From: a candidate division TM6 bacterium GW2011_GWF2_28_16
GTDB taxonomy: Bacteria > Patescibacteriota > Microgenomatia > UBA1400 > PJMF01
NCBI GenBank assembly: GCA_001029715.1
Contig: CP011212.1
Location: forward strand, 398,936-462,935
Direction of reading: 5' to 3'
Length of the DNA stretch: 64,000 nt
Shown here: positions 20,033-47,618 of the stretch, one piece after another
Layout: each line of letters begins with the position of its first letter
Numbering within the stretch: position 1 is the stretch's first letter
Notes under the pieces: model-generated
What the model was told of the DNA's origin: nothing
Database searches by the model: none
What the model saw: the letters and a program-made list of their open reading frames with translations, nothing else
Translations under genes and position numbers: made by a program

Positions 20033-20104
20033 TGACCCCACGCAGAATCGAACTGCGGTTACAAGGATGAGAACCTTGTGTCCTAACCACTAGACGATGG
20101 GGCC
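20033..20104 (-). tRNA. tRNA-Glu (anticodon CUC)
   Basis: Reverse complement folds as a cloverleaf: acceptor GGCCCCA/TGGGGTC, D-arm GTCT..GGAC, anticodon stem CAAGG/CCTTG with loop TTCTCAT (CUC), T-arm CGCAG-TTCGATT-CTGCG, discriminator A. No encoded CCA. Confidence 0.85.
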
Positions 20105-20183
20105 GATCCAGAGATTATACCAAATTTGCCTTGATTTTGTAAACGCTACACTTCTTGTAATTTGGTTCAGTGATAATAAGTTA

Positions 20184-20927
20184 ATGATAATTATTTTATT
20201 TTTCTTAACTTTATTTTTTTCTGTTAGACAAATTGAGGCACAGAGTTTTTCTTATCAATTTATTTTGGCAAATAATTCAATTGATTTAGATTTTTTAAAA
20301 AAGTTAGAATTAAATTTAGAAGAGCAAAAGCCAAAAAATTTTCTCTCTTTTGAATATAAGTTGGAAAAACAAAATGATTTGCCCTCAGATCTTCCTTTAT
20401 TTATTGTTGCTTTTGATAAAGAAGTGCTTTTTTCAGTCGATTCCAGCTTGGCAGATAGTTTATTTCACCAGGTAGAAATAAATTTAACCAATCGAAATGA
20501 TCGAATACCAGTTTTTTATCAAAGCAATTATTTAGATGGTTTTAAGCTCACATTGGAAAATTTAATTTTTATTGAAGAGCCAATTCTTAATAAGGATAAA
20601 ACTTCAATAATTAAAGACCTAAGCGTCATTAGAGAATTAGATCAATCTCTTAGCATTATTTTTTCTCTAGAAGAAACAGAAAAAAGACAACATTCTTTTC
20701 AGCTGATTTGTCTTGATGAAGGAGGCGAAGTTACAAACTCAAATAAATTATTTAAGAATGACGACTTTCTTTGGTCTGACTTTTTTTTTACAAATTCTTT
20801 TTCTAATAAAAAAAATGAATTTATTTTTCACTTGGATAAGCTCGAATGCTCTGGGCTTGTTTATGTACTTACTGACTTTTCTATTCAGTCAGATAAAACT
20901 TCAATTATCAGAGTGGAGGACTTATGA
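20184..20927 (+). CDS. Hypothetical secreted protein
   Basis: The track ORF begins inside the tRNA. A realistic start at ATG 20184 gives a signal-peptide-like MIIILFFLTLFFSVRQIEAQ. No motif. Confidence 0.45.
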   Translation: MIIILFFLTLFFSVRQIEAQSFSYQFILANNSIDLDFLKKLELNLEEQKPKNFLSFEYKLEKQNDLPSDLPLFIVAFDKEVLFSVDSSLADSLFHQVEINLTNRNDRIPVFYQSNYLDGFKLTLENLIFIEEPILNKDKTSIIKDLSVIRELDQSLSIIFSLEETEKRQHSFQLICLDEGGEVTNSNKLFKNDDFLWSDFFFTNSFSNKKNEFIFHLDKLECSGLVYVLTDFSIQSDKTSIIRVEDL

Positions 20928-21532
20928 AGGAAATTAAATTAAATTGTTTTTCTTCGAATGAATTATGTATAAATTCTTCTTCTCTTGAAAATTTTGTAAT
21001 CAATGATCCAACAGATCAGGAATTTTCTTTGCAAATTGCAAACCATGGCAATAAGGATTGTGAGCTTAATTTATCAACAAAGAATTTCAATGAAGATAGT
21101 TTTTTTGGTCAAGTTGAGCTTTTAATTTCTAGTCAAAATGAATTATTTTTTCGAGATAATTTGGACCAGTTTTTTAAGCAAAAAATAAACCTGAGCTCGA
21201 TTAGGGCTCAATCTTCAAAAACATATTATTTTTATTTAGATTTTCTAAATTTAATAACCAATGAAGAACAATTTTCAGTTAATTTTGACTTGTTGCTTGA
21301 TTTTGTTTGCCATGAGCCAAGTAAATTAGAGGAATTGCCTAATGAAGCTAATGAACTAGAAATAGAAACGCAAGAATTTACTAAGGGAGTGGTTTTATCT
21401 GCTAGTTCTAGTGCGGAGGTGAAACAGAATCTCCCACAAGTTTTTTTGTTTTTCTATTTATTGTCGATCTTGTTTGTCATAGCTTTTTTTGTCATAATTA
21501 AATTCATTAATGGCAAAAATAAGAAAAAGTAA
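20924..21532 (+). CDS. Hypothetical surface protein with C-terminal hydrophobic anchor plus basic tail
   Basis: C-terminus LPQVFLFFYLLSILFVIAFFVIIKFINGKNKKK resembles a cell-wall or membrane sorting signal, but there is no canonical LPxTG. Confidence 0.45.
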   Translation: MKEIKLNCFSSNELCINSSSLENFVINDPTDQEFSLQIANHGNKDCELNLSTKNFNEDSFFGQVELLISSQNELFFRDNLDQFFKQKINLSSIRAQSSKTYYFYLDFLNLITNEEQFSVNFDLLLDFVCHEPSKLEELPNEANELEIETQEFTKGVVLSASSSAEVKQNLPQVFLFFYLLSILFVIAFFVIIKFINGKNKKK

Positions 21533-22430
21533 AAGTAAAAGAAACTTTTGGTTTAAATTGAGTCATTTCTTTAGACCACAAGCTTCGAACAGATATCGTT
21601 CGAAACTCCTTCATCCTCAGTCGATGTTGGTGACATCCTTTATTTTATTGGCATTTTTTGCTCTTTTTAATGCGGTTAGGTTTTTTCCTAATTTAACAGA
21701 TAAAGTTTTAGGTTTTAGCTCAAACATTAGTACTAGTGATTTGCTTGATAAGACCAATCAAGAACGCCAAAGACTAGGCCTATCTAAGCTCGTTTTAAAT
21801 GAAGAGCTCAATCAAGCGGCTTTGGCTAAAGCTCAAGATATGTTCAATGATCAGTATTGGGCTCATGTTGCTCCAGATGGCAAGCAGGCCTGGGATTTTA
21901 TCAAAGAAACAGATTATTCTTATAAATATGCTGGAGAAAACTTAGCCAGAGATTTTAATACTAGCGATGAAGTAGTTGAGGCTTGGATAGCTTCTCCCTC
22001 TCATTATGAAAATTTGACTAATAAAGATTTTACCCAGATGGGTTTAGCGATTGTTAACGGTAATCTTAAGGGTTTCAATACGACTTTGGTTGTGCAATTA
22101 TTTGCTGTGCCCTCATCTGTGGCGATGAAAGATCAGGCCGGTAGTGATTTTTATTTACCAAAGGCTGCTGAAGCAACTTTTCACGAAAATGAGCTAGTGG
22201 CTGGCGAAAAAACTGCCAATAAGGAAATAGTTTTTTCCTCGCTTAATTTTACAAAAACTTTTTTCTTATTAGTAGTTCTTTTGATTATTTTAACCTTAAT
22301 CTATGATGCTTTGATAGCTTCTAGTAGAAAGTATCAGCGTCTAGTTGGACAAAACTTTGCCCATGTTGCTCTTTTTGTTACCGTTGCTTTCTTATTAGTT
22401 TTATTCAAGGGAGGTTCGGTTTTGCCATGA
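21510..22430 (+). CDS. CAP/SCP/PR-1 domain protein, membrane anchored
   Basis: YWAHVAPDGKQAW...YAGENLARDF...WIASPSHYENL blocks match CAP-domain signatures. TM segments at both ends. Confidence 0.65.
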   Translation: MAKIRKSKSKRNFWFKLSHFFRPQASNRYRSKLLHPQSMLVTSFILLAFFALFNAVRFFPNLTDKVLGFSSNISTSDLLDKTNQERQRLGLSKLVLNEELNQAALAKAQDMFNDQYWAHVAPDGKQAWDFIKETDYSYKYAGENLARDFNTSDEVVEAWIASPSHYENLTNKDFTQMGLAIVNGNLKGFNTTLVVQLFAVPSSVAMKDQAGSDFYLPKAAEATFHENELVAGEKTANKEIVFSSLNFTKTFFLLVVLLIILTLIYDALIASSRKYQRLVGQNFAHVALFVTVAFLLVLFKGGSVLP

Positions 22431-22684
22431 AAAGTTTTCTGAAAAAAAATCAAATTGCTTATCTTTTTCTCATGATTTTATTGGTAGCTTTTATTTATTT
22501 ATTTATGAGAGCTTGGCCAAATGGACAAATGCAACGTTATATTGCGATTGCTTTTGGAGTTATTTACTTTTTTTGGGGAGTAATTACTCATACCAAGAGT
22601 AAAAGAATTAATAGCGAAATTGTTTTTGAGTATTTATCAGTTTCTATGCTGGCTATACTTGTAATCGTTTTGATTACTTTATAA
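22427..22684 (+). CDS. Small 2-TM membrane protein
   Basis: 85 aa. Overlaps the upstream stop by 4 nt (ATGA). Confidence 0.4.
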   Translation: MKSFLKKNQIAYLFLMILLVAFIYLFMRAWPNGQMQRYIAIAFGVIYFFWGVITHTKSKRINSEIVFEYLSVSMLAILVIVLITL

Positions 22685-22748: not shown

Positions 22749-23496
22749 TATGGCAAGTAAAGAAATGAAGGGGATTATTTTGGCCGGTGGAGCAGGAACT
22801 CGTCTTTATCCGTTAACCAAAGTAACTAGCAAACAACTATTACCAGTTTATAACAAACCAATGATCCAATATCCGCTTGAGACTTTAATAAGAGCGGGAA
22901 TCAAAGATATTTTGATTATTGTTGCTCCAGATCACGCTGGTGATTTTCTCAAATGTTTGGGCAGTGGAAAAGAATATGGTTGCCATTTCACTTATGAAAT
23001 TCAAGATAAACCAGAGGGAATTGCTCAAGCTTTTTTAATTGGTCAAGATTTTATTGATCACGACAATGTTACTTTGATTTTAGGTGATAATCTCTATGAA
23101 GACGATTTCTCGGAAGCAATCAAAACTTTTAAGAGTGGCGGGCGTATTTTTGCCAAAAAAGTTGTTGACCCACAGCGTTTTGGTGTAGTTGAGTTCAATG
23201 AAAATAATAAAGCAATCTCAATTGAAGAAAAGCCAAAGCATCCAAAATCTGAATATTCAGTAACTGGTCTTTATATTTATGATTCAACTGTAATTGAAAA
23301 AATTAAGAGTCTTTCTTTTTCAGACAGAGGTGAGCTGGAAATTACAGATCTCAATAATCTCTATCTCAAAGAAGATAAGCTCGATGTAGCCTTTGTTAAA
23401 GGCAAGTGGTTTGATACTGGAACTTTTGAATCGATGCATGAGGCTATTACTTTTGCGAGAGATCGCCACCTAGCCAAAGAAGCTCGCTCACTGTAA
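22749..23496 (+). CDS. rmlA: Glucose-1-phosphate thymidylyltransferase (sugar nucleotidyltransferase)
   Basis: MKGIILAGGAGTRLYPLT...SKQLLPVYNKPMI signature of RmlA/RfbA. The start could also be 22765. Confidence 0.85.
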
Positions 23497-23505
23497 AATA
23501 ATTTT

Positions 23506-24342
23506 ATGAAAAGATTGGTCTTTTTTTTCTTGTCTTTTTTTCTATTGCTTTCACCTGCTCGTGCTCAAGAAGTTGGGTCAACTGACAGCTCTAGTCTAAA
23601 GACTGATGGAATTTGGCAAAAAGAACGTCTTGATGAAGAAATTTCTACTTTAAAAGCAAGTTATCAATCTCAATTAGAAAATTATCTCTATCAAGATAAA
23701 CTATATAGAATTGCCTACGATCAACATCAGGAATTACAAACTTTATCTTCTATAGAAGACCTAACCCAAAAAGCCAAAAGCTTAGGAATTTATAGAGATG
23801 AAGTTTTAATTAGTTATTTAAATTTATTGAGGCTAAATTTAATTGCCACTGAGGGGATTGAACTTTCCCTTAAGAATGAATCTTTGGCTAAATTAGAAAC
23901 GACACTTGATTACATAGGTATCCATCAAGAAAATTTAAAGAACATTAATGATAGAGATCAGGTTGTGGCTTCCTTGATGACTTTTACGACTGATCAAAAA
24001 AATCTCAATAATTTAGCAAATGAAGTTCTAGTTTTATTATCAGTTGGCAACTTACAGGTGATTTATGATAAATCAGTGGTTCTTAAGGGAGAAATTGATC
24101 TTTATTTAGAACAAAAAGGCACTTCAACTTTACCATCCATAGATCGAGCTAGTTATGAAACGAATCGTAGTTTAGATTCTGCCAAGTTGAAGCTAGACAC
24201 TTTTTGGACTGATGTTATCGAGCATAGAACTAGCAATTGGTATTTAGCTAAATTTTATGATCAATTACCAAAAACTTTAAATCCTATTTATGTCAATCTT
24301 TCACAGTCAATTTCTTATTTAAGTGAATTACTAAGTATTTAA
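23506..24342 (+). CDS. Hypothetical secreted protein
   Basis: Signal peptide LVFFFLSFFLLLSPARAQE. Largely helical composition. Confidence 0.5.
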   Translation: MKRLVFFFLSFFLLLSPARAQEVGSTDSSSLKTDGIWQKERLDEEISTLKASYQSQLENYLYQDKLYRIAYDQHQELQTLSSIEDLTQKAKSLGIYRDEVLISYLNLLRLNLIATEGIELSLKNESLAKLETTLDYIGIHQENLKNINDRDQVVASLMTFTTDQKNLNNLANEVLVLLSVGNLQVIYDKSVVLKGEIDLYLEQKGTSTLPSIDRASYETNRSLDSAKLKLDTFWTDVIEHRTSNWYLAKFYDQLPKTLNPIYVNLSQSISYLSELLSI

Positions 24343-24346
24343 AAAT

Positions 24347-24706
24347 ATGTTTTCAAGAAAAGAATTTAATCAAACCAGTCAAACTGAATTCGTCGAAGAT
24401 GGAGCTTTCATAGAAAGCTCTGCACATAAAAAATTCAACTTAAGAGACTTAAAGAATAATAAGAATTTGTTACCTTTTTATATCTTAATTGCTGTCCTAT
24501 TCTTCTTCTTTTTATTAATGATTATTAAAATAATTGGCAACAAGCAGACACCAGAGGCAGAAATGATAAAAAAAGTTGAAGAAAAAATTGAATTAGATCC
24601 GCTCAGTTTGCGAGCTAATGAGTTAAGAGCAAATCTCAAAGATCATGATCCAACTAAGCAAACCCTACCATTTCCCCAGGTTGATTTAGAATTTAATATC
24701 AATTAG
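24347..24706 (+). CDS. Hypothetical single-TM protein
   Basis: 119 aa with a central TM. Confidence 0.4.
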   Translation: MFSRKEFNQTSQTEFVEDGAFIESSAHKKFNLRDLKNNKNLLPFYILIAVLFFFFLLMIIKIIGNKQTPEAEMIKKVEEKIELDPLSLRANELRANLKDHDPTKQTLPFPQVDLEFNIN

Positions 24707-24726
24707 AATGCCAAAAAAAGTAAACT

Positions 24727-25281
24727 ATGCCAATACATAAAGACTCATACTTAGAAAAATTTGAAAAAACACTAAACCACGCTCAAGATGGTTTTGCTAC
24801 TTTGCGCACTGGCAGAGCCAGCGCACAGCTTTTAGATAGTATTTTTGTTGAAGCCTATGGATCTAGAATGGCTTTGCATGAAGTAGCTTCCATCTCTGCT
24901 CCAGACACTCAGCTCTTAGTGGTTAAGCCTTGGGATAAAAATCTTTTTCCAGCCATAGAAAAAGCAATTCAGCAAGCTCAATTAAATTTAAATCCAATTA
25001 TTGATGGAGATATTATTAGAATTGCTGTGCCTTCCCTCACTCAGGAAAGAAGACAAGAAATGGTCAAAATTCTTAGTCAAAAAGAAGAAGAGGCTAAAGT
25101 GATGTTCCGTAGTGTGCGAGCTGAAATACGCAAAGATATAGAGAAACAAGAAGGGGAAGCGGGCGTTAGCGAAGATGATATTAAATCTGAAGTTATAGAA
25201 TTGGACGAGACTGTTAAAGAATACATTACTAATCTAGAAGAAATTTCTAAACAAAAAGAAAAAGAGCTTCTAAACATTTAG
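24727..25281 (+). CDS. frr: Ribosome recycling factor
   Basis: FATLRTGRASAQLLDSI, ISAPD, LVVKPWDKN and LNLNP blocks typical of RRF. 184 aa. Confidence 0.9.
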   Translation: MPIHKDSYLEKFEKTLNHAQDGFATLRTGRASAQLLDSIFVEAYGSRMALHEVASISAPDTQLLVVKPWDKNLFPAIEKAIQQAQLNLNPIIDGDIIRIAVPSLTQERRQEMVKILSQKEEEAKVMFRSVRAEIRKDIEKQEGEAGVSEDDIKSEVIELDETVKEYITNLEEISKQKEKELLNI

Positions 25282-25292
25282 CTTAGGTTTTT

Positions 25293-26405
25293 ATGGCAGC
25301 TTTGATTTTTATTCTTATTTTGTCTTTTTTAGTGATCATTCATGAGGCTGGACATTTTCTTTTTGCCAGAAAAAATCATATTAAAGTCAGAGAATTTGGT
25401 TTAGGCTATCCACCCAGAATTTTAAAATTATTTTATTGGAGGGGGACTCTTTTTTCACTTAATTTAATTCCTTTTGGTGGTTTTGTGCAGATGGATGGTG
25501 AAAATGGTCCAGAGGGAGATGAAAATAATTCTGCAGATTCTTTTTATGAGAAATCAATCAGAGCTCGCTTGCAAGTTATTTTAGCAGGAGTGACTGTTAA
25601 CTTTATTTTTGGAATTATAGCTTTTGCCATTGTTTTTTATCGCTTAGGTATTCCTACGGCTTTAGATGGCCAAGCAAGAATTCAGGATATAGCTGACAAT
25701 TCTCCAGCGATGGTGGCTGGTTTAGTGTCAAATACTAATATTTTGGCTTTTAAAACTGTCGATCAGTGGGTAGAAATGAATAGCATTTCTGAAGTTCAAG
25801 ATTTTAGTGCGGCTCATCTGGGCGAAACACTTGAAATTAGAACTTCTTTACTTTGTGACCAGGAATTTTGTACCGATGAATATAGAGAGAGCTCTATTTA
25901 TTTAAGAACAGTTGAGGAAACACCGACTAATGAAGGTGCGATGGGAATTGCTTTTAGCGATACGATTTTCAAAAGTTATCCTTGGTACTTAATGCCTTTC
26001 ATGACTATCTTCCATGCTTTTAAGCAATCAATCGCTTTAGCAGTATTAATATTGCAATCTCTTTGGCAGTTAGTTGTAGATTTATTTGCAGGAAGAGGTG
26101 TTCAGCAAGAAGTAGCTGGTCCAATTGGAATCATTGATCAAGCTAACACTTATGGGTTTTTTGAGGGCGGTTTTTTGAGCATTCTCAATTTTGCAGCATT
26201 ATTGTCTATTAATTTAGGAATTATGAATTTATTGCCAATTCCTGCGCTAGATGGAGGAAGAGCAATTTTGATAATTTTAGAAAAATTTTTCAAGAGAAAA
26301 CACATTGATAAAATTGCGCATTATCTAAATTATTTTGGTTATATTTCCCTACTTGCTCTAATGATCATTGTTTCCTTTAATGATATAAGAAACATTTTTA
26401 AATAA
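25293..26405 (+). CDS. rseP: Site-2 protease RseP family (M50 zinc metalloprotease)
   Basis: HEAGHF (HExxH) in TM1 and NLLPIPALDGG (LDG motif). Confidence 0.85.
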   Translation: MAALIFILILSFLVIIHEAGHFLFARKNHIKVREFGLGYPPRILKLFYWRGTLFSLNLIPFGGFVQMDGENGPEGDENNSADSFYEKSIRARLQVILAGVTVNFIFGIIAFAIVFYRLGIPTALDGQARIQDIADNSPAMVAGLVSNTNILAFKTVDQWVEMNSISEVQDFSAAHLGETLEIRTSLLCDQEFCTDEYRESSIYLRTVEETPTNEGAMGIAFSDTIFKSYPWYLMPFMTIFHAFKQSIALAVLILQSLWQLVVDLFAGRGVQQEVAGPIGIIDQANTYGFFEGGFLSILNFAALLSINLGIMNLLPIPALDGGRAILIILEKFFKRKHIDKIAHYLNYFGYISLLALMIIVSFNDIRNIFK

Positions 26406-37164: not shown

Positions 37165-37270
37165 TTTTATATTCTAGCTTTTCTTTTTAACTAACTCAAG
37201 CAAAAGAATTTTGTTGATGTTATACTTGACGCATTCAAAATCAAAAAATTTAAAAATAGAAAGGTTTTTA

Positions 37271-39487
37271 ATGTCTTTTAGATCTGGTAAGTGGCAAGAA
37301 GAAATTAACACTAGGGATTTTATTTTAAATAATTTTACTCCCTACGATGGCGATAATTCTTTTCTAAAAGGTCCCACCGAAGCGACCAAAGAACTTTGGC
37401 AAAAATCTAGCGAACTTTTACAAAAAGAGATGAAAAATGGTGGTATTTTAGATATTGATACCAAAACCATCTCTTCAATAACCAGCCATAAACCTGGATA
37501 TTTAGATAAGAAAATTGAAAAGATTGTTGGTTTTCAAACAGACGCTCCACTAAAAAGAGCCATGAAGCCTTATGGAGGTATTAGAGTGGTTGAGGCTGCT
37601 TGTGAAGAAAATGGCTACAAAGTTGATCCGGCAGTTTCTGAAATTTTTAATAAATATCGTAAATCTCATAATGATGGTGTTTTTGATGTTTATACTAAAA
37701 CTATGCGTCAACTACGTTCAACTGGTATTTTGACTGGTTTACCAGACAATTATGCTCGTGGCAGAATTATTGGTGATTATCGTCGTGTGGCTTTATATGG
37801 TATCGATCGTTTAGTTGAGGCCAAAAAAGCAGATAAAGAGACTTTGGATGGCGTAATGACTGATGATTTAATCAGACTCCGTGAAGAAATCAGTGAACAA
37901 ATTAAAGCTTTAGGAGAAATGAAGGAAATGGCTCTTAGCTATGGCTTTGATATTTCTAAACCAGCCAAAAATGCTCAAGAAGCCATTCAATGGACTTGGT
38001 TTGGTTTCTTAGCCGCTCTAAAGGAACAAGATGGTGCAGCCATGAGTTTGGGCAATGTCAGTACTTTTTTTGATGTTTATATCGAAAGAGATCTAAAAAA
38101 TGGCAATTTAACTGAAGTTGAGGCTCAAGAATTAGTTGATCATTTCATCATGAAATGTCGTCTCATTCGTCATTTGCGCATGGATGCTTATAATGAGCTT
38201 TTTGCTGGAGATCCAACCTGGATTACGGAAGCAATTGGTGGCTTTTTCTCTAATGGTCAACACAAAATTACCAAGACTAGTTTTAGATTTTTACAAAGTT
38301 TATATAATATTGGTCCAGCTCCAGAGCCAAACTTAACTATTTTATGGTCAGATAAGCTTCCAAAGGGTTTCAAGAAGTTTGCTGCTCAGGTTTCGATTGA
38401 CACTTCTTCACTGCAATATGAAAATGACAGCCTGATGCGTGAGGCAGGCAATTGTGATGATTATTGTATTGCTTGTTGTGTTTCGATGATGGAAACCGGC
38501 AAAGAAATGCAATTTTTTGGAGCACGCTGCAATTTAGCTAAAGCTTTGCTAATGGCTCTTAATGAGGGTCGTGATGAAATCAGTGGTGAGCTAGTGGTGA
38601 CTGGAATTGAAAAAATGCCAGCTGGCCCAATTAAATATGAAGAATTTATTAAGAGATTTAAGCAAACTGTAGCTTATTTAGCTAAAGCTTACGTTAATAC
38701 CATGGACGTCATTCATTATATGCATGACAAATATTATTATGAAAAAGCTCAAATGGCCTTGATGGATACCGAGGTTAAAAGAAATATGGCTTTTGGTATG
38801 GCAGGATTAAGCGTAGTGGCAGATTCTATTTCAGCGATTAAATTTGCCAAAGTTACACCAATTCGCAATGAAGAAGGTTTGACGACTGGTTTTGAGACAG
38901 AAGGTGAATTCCCAATGTATGGCAATGATGATGATCGCGTTGATACAATCGCTCAGAGCTTGGTTAGCGATTTTAATAAAGAATTGGCTAAGCAACACAT
39001 TTATCGTGATGCAACTCCAACTTTGTCGATTTTAACCATCACTTCTAACGTTGTTTATGGCAAGAAAACTGGTTCTACCCCAGACGGACGTAAAAAAGGT
39101 GAACCTTTTGCTCCAGGAGCGAATCCAATGCATGGTCGTGATCATTCAGGTGCAATTGCCTCACTAAATTCAGTGGCCAAGATTGATTATCATGATGCTA
39201 GAGATGGTGTTTCTAACACTTTTTCAATCGTGCCAAAAACCTTAGGTGAAAATAAGGAAACTCAGGTCAACAATCTTTTGGCAATGCTTGATGGTTACTT
39301 TAACAAAAACGCTCATCACCTAAACGTTAATGTTTTGAATCGTGAAACTTTGGAAGATGCTATGAAGCATCCAGAGAAATATCCACAATTAACCATTCGT
39401 GTTTCTGGATATGCGGTTAACTTTGTCAGACTGAGTGAGGCTCATCAACGAGAAGTCATTGCTAGAACCTTTCATGAAAGCATGTAA
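37271..39487 (+). CDS. pflB: Formate C-acetyltransferase (pyruvate formate-lyase)
   Basis: Catalytic CC (IACCVSM) and glycyl-radical motif RVSGYAV near the C-terminus. Start set at ATG 37271 with a GAAAGG SD. Confidence 0.9.
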
Positions 39488-40220
39488 TCTGAAAATCCAT
39501 TCGATTGAAACCTTTGGGACTCATGATGGTCCAGGTATTCGTTTGGTAATTTTTGCACAGGGCTGTCTTTTTCGCTGTCTTTATTGTCACAACCCAGACA
39601 CACAAGCTTTGGAAACTGATAAAACCAAAACGATTAAAATTAAAGAAATTCTTGAACTTTTAGAAAAGCAAAGAACCTATTTTGGCAAAACTGGTGGCTT
39701 AACGATTTCTGGTGGTGAGCCAACACTACAAGCCACTGGGTTAATTGAACTTTTCAAAGAATGCAAAAAAAGAGCTTTTAATACCTGTCTCGATACTTGT
39801 GGAGCAATTTATAGCCGAGAAGTGCAAGAGCTTTATGATTTAGCTGATTTAGTCATGCTTGATGTTAAACACATTGATGATGGCTGGCACCAAAAATTAA
39901 CTGGGATGAGCAATGCTAATACTCTTAAAAACGCTGCTTATCGAGAAAAAACAGGCAAAGAATTGTGGTTGCGCTATGTTTTGGTGCCCGGTTGGACCGA
40001 TCAAGAAGAACATCTGGAAACATGGGCTAAGTATTTTGCAAATTATAAAACTCTTAAAAGAGTAGAATTAATTCCTTATCATAAATTAGGAGTTTTTAAG
40101 TATGAGGCTTTGGGTCGTAAATATGAACTCGATGGAGTTGAGCCCCCGACAAAAACTGAGATTGCTAAAGCAGCAGAAATTTTTATAAAGTATTTAGGTA
40201 ATAAAGTTGTGGTGGTTTAA
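39474..40220 (+). CDS. pflA: Pyruvate formate-lyase activating enzyme (radical SAM)
   Basis: [25 protein letters not shown] (CxxxCxxC). Collinear with the E. coli PflA N-terminus. Overlaps pflB by 14 nt. Confidence 0.9.
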
Positions 40221-46560: not shown

Positions 46561-46770
46561 AATATTTTTATAAAATTACCGCTTGCGCTGATTCTCAATT
46601 CTTGCTACTTTAATTATTGCTGTGGAACATAGTGAAAATCTATGACTGTGCCGCAACGGTAATTCCTTTTTAAGGATTAGTCCGATCTTCAGCAAAAGAG
46701 AAATCTTGACGAGCATCGAGGCTGTATATTTTACTGTCGATGCTCCCTAAAGGGGAGCTTTTTTGTTCAA
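46561..46770 (+). promoter_or_regulatory. Structured leader with alternative hairpins ending in an intrinsic terminator (attenuator/riboswitch-like)
   Basis: Hairpin A is GAGCATCGA (46711-46719) / TCGATGCTC (46736-46744). Its 3' arm overlaps the 5' arm of the terminator GCTCCC(46742-46747)-TAAA-GGGAGC + T6. A further long-range stem lies upstream. Confidence 0.4.
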
Positions 46771-46840
46771 AGAACCACGGCTATTAATATTATTAATAGT
46801 TATCTTCGTGGTTAATTTCTGCGAAGTAAGAAAGGTTTTT

Positions 46841-47542
46841 ATGAACACAAAAGCTATCGAAATGGCAGGCAGTATTGGAATTGAGCTAAGCCAAATAAAT
46901 TCAGAATGGACTTCTCTTCAAAGCATTGATTCTTCTTCAATATTAGAGAATGCAGGTAAGGAAGCAGGCATAGAAGATCGTCAGTGGCAAAAATTGCTTT
47001 CTCAAGCTGGTTCTTGGGTGATTGATGGTTTGGATAAAAAGATATTTGAAATACAAAATAAAGTAATTGAGCAAACAACTGCCATTGAGTTAAGAAAAAT
47101 GTTTGGTGTTCCACTTTCATTGCTAGCAATGCCTGTTTTTGTAGAGTTGGCAGGAATGGAATTGGCAGCGAAAATTGATTTGAAAAAAGAAGCCATGATG
47201 ACCTCTCAAATTTGGGAACAAATTAATAACAGAGTTTTATATATGGTTCAACTTTTCTTAGCAGAGCAAATCAATTTGGTCGAAGATGAAGAAAAAGCTC
47301 ATCAGAGTGCTTTGAGTGAATCAAAGAAAGAAGCCGACGGAGTCTCTGGTTTATCAGAAACGGTGGGAGCTGTGGAGAATCAATTTGCTTCAAAGCTGGA
47401 AAAACTAAAAGATAAGAAAGAATCTTTAATAAGTGTTTTCAAAAAGATTGGTGGAGATTTAGTTAATACTGTTGAGAGAGCTTTTGAGACTACTGTTTTT
47501 AGTGCGAGTAGGCAAAGTACTGCTGTTACGGTGATTCAATAA
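46841..47542 (+). CDS. Hypothetical all-alpha protein
   Basis: Start chosen at ATG 46841 with AAGAAAGG SD (MNTKAIEMAGS...); the track TTG start at 46763 lies inside the terminator. Confidence 0.5.
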   Translation: MNTKAIEMAGSIGIELSQINSEWTSLQSIDSSSILENAGKEAGIEDRQWQKLLSQAGSWVIDGLDKKIFEIQNKVIEQTTAIELRKMFGVPLSLLAMPVFVELAGMELAAKIDLKKEAMMTSQIWEQINNRVLYMVQLFLAEQINLVEDEEKAHQSALSESKKEADGVSGLSETVGAVENQFASKLEKLKDKKESLISVFKKIGGDLVNTVERAFETTVFSASRQSTAVTVIQ

Positions 47543-47547
47543 ACTTG

Positions 47548-47618
47548 ATCCCGGGCCAGGATTTGAACCTAGAATAATTGATTCAGAGTCAATTGTGATG
47601 CCATTTCACTACCCGGGA
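47548..47618 (-). tRNA. tRNA-Gln (anticodon CUG)
   Basis: Reverse complement: acceptor TCCCGGG/CCCGGGA, D-arm GTGA..TCAC, anticodon stem ATTGA/TCAAT with loop CTCTGAA (CUG), T-arm CTAGG-TTCAAAT-CCTGG. Confidence 0.85.

Follow-up and report, generated by a model that had tools for sequence, protein, structure and literature searches.

We analysed a 64 kb stretch of contig CP011212.1 (the window in what follows) and describe here the region around a minus-strand tRNA-Glu gene with anticodon CUC, to the right of which four plus-strand genes, g1 to g4, follow one another in tight succession (Table 1). They encode a secreted protein (g1), a beta-sandwich protein with a C-terminal hydrophobic helix (g2), a membrane protein with a CAP domain (g3) and a short protein with three hydrophobic segments (g4). 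Both the tRNA gene, which was called by ARAGORN as well as by Rfam, and the four overlapping genes lie where an initial annotation of the DNA had put them. Pfam tables were made for the whole window and contain housekeeping and envelope-glycan genes. The g3 protein matches, with 100% identity, one from Candidatus Pacebacteria bacterium GW2011_GWF2_38_9, a metagenome-assembled bacterium of the Candidate Phyla Radiation (CPR), and the exact protein is also found on groundwater metagenome contigs. At NCBI the window copy is labeled as hypothetical, while some of its relatives carry the name “CAP domain-containing protein.”

Table 1. Features at and around the tRNA-Glu gene, with positions in the window (aa, amino acids; nt, nucleotides; ORF, open reading frame; TM, transmembrane).
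Feature	Position	Strand	Basis and remarks
tRNA-Glu, anticodon CUC (CTC)	20032/3-20104	minus	ARAGORN; Rfam RF00005, 59.7 bits
g1	20184-20927	plus	ORF; 247 aa
g2	20924-21532	plus	ORF; 202 aa
g3	21510-22430	plus	ORF; 306 aa
TM1 of g3, residues ~39-60	21624-21689	plus	hydropathy and conservation
CAP domain of g3, residues 79-196	21744-22097	plus	Pfam PF00188
C-terminal TM hairpin of g3, residues ~247-300	22248-22409	plus	hydropathy and conservation
g4	22427-22684	plus	ORF; 85 aa
Promoter-like site, TTTACA / 18 nt spacer / TG-extended TATAAT	20114-20143	minus	consensus match only, just upstream of tRNA
Variable slot 3' of tRNA: orphan genes of 290 aa and 738 aa	16768-19996	minus	no Pfam or PADLOC match
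Downstream string	22750-26405	plus	sugar-1-phosphate nucleotidyltransferase, 278-aa secreted protein, 119-aa single-TM protein, frr (RRF), M50/RseP; Pfam

The genes g1 and g2 overlap by 4 nt (ATGA), g2 and g3 by 23 nt and g3 and g4 again by 4 nt (ATGA), and a Shine-Dalgarno-like GGAGG or GGGAGG precedes g2 and g4. Through its ATGA overlap g4 is probably translationally coupled to g3. The formal reading frame of g1 opens at 20097, within the tRNA, but we place its start at the ATG at 20184, because the homologues begin at an equivalent methionine with a signal peptide. A programmed frameshift that would fuse g1 and g2 was considered and rejected, since a Shine-Dalgarno sequence and an ATG are present at the junction in each of four genomes, with just 7-10 open codons upstream. 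The cluster had been described as a four-gene operon; its genes are indeed tightly packed, but an operon boundary is not established. No terminator-like site was found after g4, and from 20.1 to 25.7 kb the plus strand has none at all; the transcription unit may therefore extend into the nucleotidyltransferase, frr and rseP genes, which together with the rest of the downstream string are probably co-transcribed.

The CAP domain proposed for g3 was recovered with Pfam PF00188 at E = 1.1e-19 (71.9 bits vs. a cut-off of 21.1), covering profile positions 1-115 of 117. Among the NCBIfam models, g3 is related to YkwD (TIGR02909) without being a member (7e-26, 90.6 bits vs. a cut-off of 171), and it does not reach the DalA model (NF052539; 3.5e-15, 56.3 bits vs. 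a cut-off of 200). Its sole sequence match in the PDB is 4IFA (1e-9), deposited as an extracellular protein containing an SCP domain, which we take to be a protein of Bacillus. With regard to the conserved CAP motifs (G-E-N-L of CAP4, histidine of the CAP1 region), G142, E143, N144, L145, H119 and H165 do not vary in 30 diverse family members; g3 retains the GENLA and SPxH motifs, and the HNxxR motif appears as TNxxR, with a nearly invariant T82. No cysteine at all is present in the protein, which makes it unlike the “cysteine-rich secretory” type of eukaryotes. The homologue search with g3 returned 3812 sequences, and scanning a one-genome-per-species collection with the most conserved peptides of the g3 CAP family gave at least 533 confirmed stretches for this full-length subfamily, so that the rarity in bacteria initially ascribed to the domain does not apply.

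The initial annotation was right in calling g3 a membrane protein, which has three TM helices rather than a single anchor, as judged from hydropathy and conservation in 120 and 30 homologues. TM1 looks uncleaved and follows a basic N-terminus of 38 residues with a conserved P-x3-N-x2-R-x3-LHP motif; the CAP domain comes next, and a variable linker separates it from a conserved C-terminal hairpin in which T262, L263, Y265, D266, N282 and F299 are invariant and H285 is nearly so. The hairpin and the N-terminal cytoplasmic motif are among the best-conserved parts of the protein. Both the N-terminus and the loop between TM2 and TM3 are basic, from which, following the positive-inside rule, we infer a topology with an outward-facing CAP domain. 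The N-terminal cytoplasmic motif (N-x-Y/H-R-...-L) was also considered as a feature common to other proteins of the window and rejected as such, g3 alone having it. Directly after TM1 the CAP protein has an invariant L-G, and the g2 family, like the CAP family, has a V-L-(A)-G/S-like motif at a distance of 20-45 residues ahead of the C-terminal TM helix (the sites concerned are residues ~157-158 in g2 and ~67-68 and ~229-232 in g3). The motif might mark a processing site or a linker. A full-length CAP/3-TM paralogue lies outside the conserved gene string described below in one relative (L010, 8001-9029), where it has no 85-aa partner and is neighbored by HNH, SIR2-like and M78-peptidase/HTH genes.

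For g4 three hydrophobic segments were found instead of the two TM segments initially assumed; two of them pass the hydropathy scan, and the third (~38-54) is our estimate from the sequence. Residues Y47, W50, G51, E68 and Y69 are invariant in the family and H55 is nearly invariant. DUF5656 (PF18900) is matched by 18 of 42 family members (best E = 1.3e-5), while the window copy gives no match at E ≤ 0.1; on this basis g4 can be classified as a putative, divergent DUF5656-like protein. A search of the PDB with the g4 profile yielded no match.

Synteny counts were taken from 80 loci kept from the species survey, with the loci having enough flanking sequence as denominator for each feature, and six relatives with a CAP protein 41-65% identical to g3 were compared more closely. 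In 75 of 77 loci g4 directly follows the CAP gene. Further downstream the nucleotidyltransferase (NTP_transferase) is kept in 49 of 71 loci, the 278-aa protein (p278) in 51 of 68, the 119-aa protein (p119) in 50 of 68, and frr together with rseP (RRF, M50) in 38 of 57. Five of these six relatives share one order, namely tRNA-Glu (CTC, minus), variable genes, CAP, 85 aa, NTP_transferase, ~278 aa, ~120 aa, frr, M50/RseP, DUF3048, ~199 aa, SecD and SecF; in the window, too, DUF3048 and SecDF are located further downstream of the string, and the start of the nucleotidyltransferase is ambiguous (22711 or 22750). No consistent Pfam assignment was obtained for the p278 and p119 families (31 and 30 members scanned). 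The synteny of g3, g4 and the tRNA with frr, rseP and secDF persists in relatives down to ~35-40% identity. The initial annotation had seen lineage-specific blocks on both sides of the tRNA and held that a housekeeping block conserved among relatives would speak against this view. This is what we find for half of the cluster: g3 and g4 are conserved and syntenic, whereas g1, g2 and the block to the left are lineage-specific and variable.

Names that occur in the record titles of the 80 loci are Pacebacteria/Paceibacterota, Woesebacteria, Gottesmanbacteria, Chisholmbacteria and Microgenomates, besides less specific labels. Many of the species-level metagenome-assembled genomes that bear the synteny are titled “uncultured Pseudomonadales,” “Gammaproteobacteria,” “Vitreimonas,” “Limisphaerales” or “Methylococcaceae” (loci L019-L094); on loci of the Microgenomates type such record names look like mislabeling or placeholders.

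The tRNA belongs to the conserved part of the arrangement. It is found in the same orientation upstream of the CAP gene in loci L007, L008, L009, L011 and L012, and a minus-strand tRNA-Glu(ctc) precedes the CAP gene in 33 of the 80 species loci at a median distance of 1.7 kb. On the left border of the cluster the tRNA is a conserved landmark. The promoter-like site just upstream of it matches 11 of 12 consensus positions in addition to the extended TG, and is the best sigma-70-like match between 16.5 and 27 kb; we infer that it may serve as a promoter. On the other side, 3' of the tRNA, the content differs in every relative examined. In a comparison with the loci of 86 relatives, the 738-aa orphan gene of the window had one homologue and the 290-aa gene (284 aa as called in public assemblies) none; the latter shows a weak phosphoribosyltransferase-like match at its C-terminus (TIGR01203, 6e-8, below cut-off). 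In other relatives this place is taken by MacB-type ABC genes, by a sigma factor or by a TraG/VirD4-like gene, and in L034 the slot is empty and the conserved DeoC-p173 genes directly abut the tRNA. The TraG/VirD4-like coupling-protein gene lies in the 3'-side variable region of L012 (179-2776), ~2 kb from tRNA-Glu, which hints that the slot can receive mobile DNA. A PADLOC search for defense systems gave no match on either flank.

This variability of gene content 3' of a tRNA among relatives is shared with tRNA-linked genomic islands, from which the locus differs in the points that follow. As the initial annotation had stated for the tRNA neighborhood, integrase and transposase genes are missing, and indeed the Pfam tables of the whole 64 kb contain no integrase, transposase, recombinase or sortase. 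The 21 nt at the 3' end of the tRNA occur a single time in the window with three mismatches allowed, and a general repeat scan of the window brought up no relevant repeat. GC content and GC content at third codon positions (GC3) of g1-g4 are within 1.6 standard deviations of the window's genes, and the left flank is of normal composition (GC z between -0.2 and 0.1) while its gene content is variable. Furthermore, it is on the conserved side of the tRNA that the CAP cluster lies.

Between the tRNA and the CAP gene lie g1 and g2, which are narrow, fast-evolving families. The secretion proposed for g1 is borne out by a signal peptide (residues 1-19) with probable cleavage after IEA; structure modeling suggests two tandem beta-sandwich domains of the immunoglobulin/fibronectin type III (Ig/Fn3) kind, and C176 and C222 are invariant in the family. 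Its homologues number 20 among 1.84 billion cluster representatives, and g1-like genes occur in 13 of the 80 species loci, all from closer relatives. For g2, 17 homologues were found in a collection of 5.8 billion sequences, profile search included, and g2-like genes occur in 11 of the 80 loci, again all from closer relatives. In the AlphaFold2 model of g2 (predicted local distance difference test score, pLDDT, of 71.6 overall and 80-93 in the core) a beta-sandwich (residues 1-130) is followed by a disordered linker (133-171) and a TM helix (~171-196), after which the protein ends in an NGKNKKK tail. None of the 17 family members has an N-terminal signal peptide or a hydrophobic N-terminus, all of them starting directly with the beta-sandwich (MKEIKLNC...). 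The four cysteines of the beta-sandwich are invariant across homologues and, together with the basic C-terminal tail, they argue for an N-out topology, by which g2 would be located at the surface. In close homologues the helix and the tail (LFFYLLSILFVIAFFVIIKFINGKKKKK) are more conserved than the ectodomain, which fits a permanent, specifically interacting TM anchor.

Only g1 and g2 are found in this slot, between tRNA-Glu and CAP, in the window and its nearest relatives. In other relatives it contains an archaeal-type signal peptidase I, SipW-like and above the cut-off of TIGR02228 (1.6e-26, 5.3e-23), and proteins of 200-265 aa whose profile matches TasA from end to end (8AUR_A, 4.1e-5; 5OF1_A, 5.7e-5) and of which 9 of 19 match Peptidase_M73/camelysin (PF12389). 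A SipW or TasA-like gene is found upstream in 15 of the 39 species loci whose upstream sequence extends over 8.9 kb or more, for instance at 3456-7959 in L011, 4963-7861 in L012 and 5774-7949 in L008, and in L008, L009, L022, L023 and L025 the order is g1-like, g2-like, TasA-like, CAP. The slot is thus a variable surface-protein slot and a hot spot of surface-protein turnover, and the best reading of g1 and g2 is that of fast-changing surface proteins belonging to a fiber or adhesin cassette. We found no literature on TasA/SipW systems in CPR bacteria of the Microgenomates group.

Taken together, we consider it probable, at roughly 0.65, that the locus is a normal, vertically inherited stretch of the chromosome of a Microgenomates-group (OP11, “Pacebacteria”) CPR bacterium, in which a core g3-g4 envelope module is combined with a variable g1-g2 slot. 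The tRNA-Glu gene with its own putative promoter would stand at the left border of a long series of envelope and secretion genes that all read in one direction, and g3 and g4 would be a core, obligately paired module of this bacterial group. Between TM1 and the C-terminal hairpin, g3 would display a cysteine-free CAP domain of the YkwD type on the outer face of the membrane, and g3 and g4 might form one small membrane complex. The CAP domain would then face the cell wall and, by analogy with DalA, could have a role in envelope maintenance or division. The slot would be filled by g1 and g2, the latter held by its permanent C-terminal TM helix.

DalA (RSP_1200) of Rhodobacter sphaeroides, a CAP/YkwD protein (PMC5442454), is the only experimentally characterized bacterial CAP homologue that we found. 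It binds peptidoglycan, localizes to the septum, co-precipitates with FtsZ and L,D-transpeptidases and is required for normal division (PMC10470522). Both proteins have a CAP/YkwD-type domain of the bacterial kind that faces the cell wall, in g3 by prediction, but DalA is an outer-membrane lipoprotein of a diderm, whereas g3 is a predicted three-TM inner-membrane protein of a CPR bacterium, and the lipobox cysteine and lipoprotein signal peptide of DalA have no counterpart in the cysteine-free g3. As g3 stays below the cut-off of the DalA model, the analogy supports “works like” rather than “is a.” The YkwD/SCP-like extracellular proteins (TIGR02909; 4IFA) belong to the same CAP fold family, from which g3 deviates in that it is not soluble and secreted and has its CAP domain held by TM helices and accompanied by a DUF5656-like partner. 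With the eukaryotic CAP superfamily (CRISP, antigen 5, PR-1, Pry) g3 has PF00188 in common and differs in being cysteine-free and membrane-embedded, in the replaced histidine of HNxxR and in its closest similarity to bacterial models. The locus is a regular member of an uncharacterised but widespread bacterial CAP subfamily, accompanied by two narrow orphan families. In the literature, the only full-text match for a CAP domain in Patescibacteria used “cap domain” in another sense, nothing relevant was found on DUF5656, and no published functional study of the CAP(3-TM)/85-aa pair was found.

Several points weigh against the reading of the locus as an inherited envelope module with a surface-protein slot. 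Its functional part is drawn by analogy only, with g3 far below the cut-offs of both the DalA (56 vs. 200 bits) and the YkwD (91 vs. 171 bits) models and anchored by TM helices rather than as a lipoprotein. CPR cells live attached to other cells, and their conserved surface proteins may have a role in partner contact. The g2 protein has no signal peptide for the export of its 170-residue N-terminal domain, and it could be cytoplasmic. No SipW or TasA-like sequence was found in the 64 kb window by tblastn. Finally, since the scans gave p278 and p119 no family assignment, the “envelope” flavor of the downstream string derives mainly from frr, rseP, secDF and the nucleotidyltransferase.

A rival reading along the lines of the initial annotation is that of a lineage-specific, possibly acquired surface-protein operon at a tRNA, whose rare CAP/PR-1 domain would mediate interaction with a host or eukaryote. 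Eukaryotic CAP proteins often act in host-pathogen contact and CPR bacteria are commonly episymbionts; the lineage-specific nature of g1, g2 and the left flank is in line with this proposal, as are the changing content of the slot 3' of the tRNA and the TraG/VirD4-like gene found there in one relative. For g3 and g4, however, it is largely refuted by their conservation and synteny, along with that of the tRNA, across the group. The CAP domain is of the common, cysteine-free bacterial YkwD type, and neither an integrase nor an att repeat at the tRNA 3' end nor a deviation in GC or GC3 speaks for acquisition. The samples with the exact g3 protein include a groundwater metagenome, the GW2011 name likewise points to groundwater, and a eukaryotic host is not indicated. 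We therefore hold the host-interaction proposal to be improbable.

Two further alternatives concern g2, one of them together with g1. The hydrophobic helix and KNKKK tail of g2 were noted initially as a sortase-like anchor without LPxTG, and these features do exist; g2 might accordingly be a substrate of a sortase, or of another C-terminal sorting enzyme with a non-canonical motif, so that its helix and lysine tail would be removed by cleavage and the remainder attached to the wall. The likeness to sortase/LPXTG anchoring extends to the helix and basic tail, and a V-L pair that hardly varies and precedes the helix by 20-45 residues could be taken in the same sense. The sortase-like interpretation itself gained no support: g2 contains no LPxTG, no motif directly before the helix is conserved among the 17 homologues (the “LPQV” of the window copy is not kept), none of the NCBIfam sorting-signal models matches, the N-terminal signal peptide needed by sortase substrates is lacking, and no sortase family is present in the Pfam tables of the window. 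That the helix is more strongly conserved than the ectodomain in close homologues is in keeping with a TM anchor that has a function and not with a signal that is removed, and processing of this kind appears very improbable. Alternatively, g1 and g2 might be the accessory and anchor proteins of a donor-strand-assembled surface fiber of the TasA type, with g2 being TapA-like and the major subunit and SipW encoded elsewhere in the genome. TapA anchors and nucleates TasA fibers in B. subtilis (PMC9674648), and in relatives the g1-/g2-like genes stand beside TasA-family genes (L008, L009, L022, L023, L025) or near SipW (L027). Yet a Foldseek search gave no match at E ≤ 1e-3, hhalign of the g2 family with the TasA-like families of relatives reached probabilities of 0.4% and 0.2%, and g2 has no PF12389 match in Pfam. 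Compared with the tapA-sipW-tasA operon of Bacillus and with the archaeal bundling pili of the TasA superfamily, the window is without a SipW or TasA-family gene, g1 and g2 show no sequence relation to TasA, and g2 lacks a SipW-type signal peptide; moreover, the closest relatives (L007, L016-L021, L034) have no TasA-like gene at the locus. We thus regard the fiber interpretation as unlikely, though conceivable.

Since the host-interaction reading does not hold, the locus carries little weight as a candidate island or host-interaction locus. The significance of the preferred reading, an inherited envelope module next to a surface-protein slot, lies rather in the CAP(3-TM)/85-aa pair, which is almost invariably linked (75/77) and heads a conserved envelope/secretion string in a large uncultured group, and in the turnover of surface proteins, SipW/TasA-type fiber genes included, in the slot beside it. 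This pair and the slot between tRNA and CAP gene are reasonable entry points into how CPR cells build and decorate their envelope, although neither would surprise a specialist. It is tempting to speculate that the CAP protein and its DUF5656-like partner constitute a group-wide envelope machine of Microgenomates-group CPR bacteria. The CAP fold of eukaryotic members is known to bind sterols and fatty acids, CPR bacteria are, to our knowledge, generally reported to lack lipid biosynthesis, and how they acquire lipids is a long-standing open problem. In its boldest form the machine would capture host lipids and hand them over to the membrane; in a tamer form it would be a DalA-like peptidoglycan/divisome scaffold in a monoderm CPR envelope. 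We consider this idea a long shot.

Two observations were made elsewhere in the window. A hypothetical ORF (46763-47542) that matches no Pfam family is immediately preceded by an adenosylcobalamin (AdoCbl, B12) riboswitch on the plus strand (46597-46756; Rfam RF01482, 55.6 bits vs. a gathering score of 50), next to a tRNA-Gln(CTG) gene (47547-47618). Also on the plus strand, an ADP-forming acyl-CoA synthetase-like gene comes after those for a pyruvate formate-lyase-like glycyl-radical enzyme and its radical-SAM activase (37211-40220), and together they look like a fermentative energy module.

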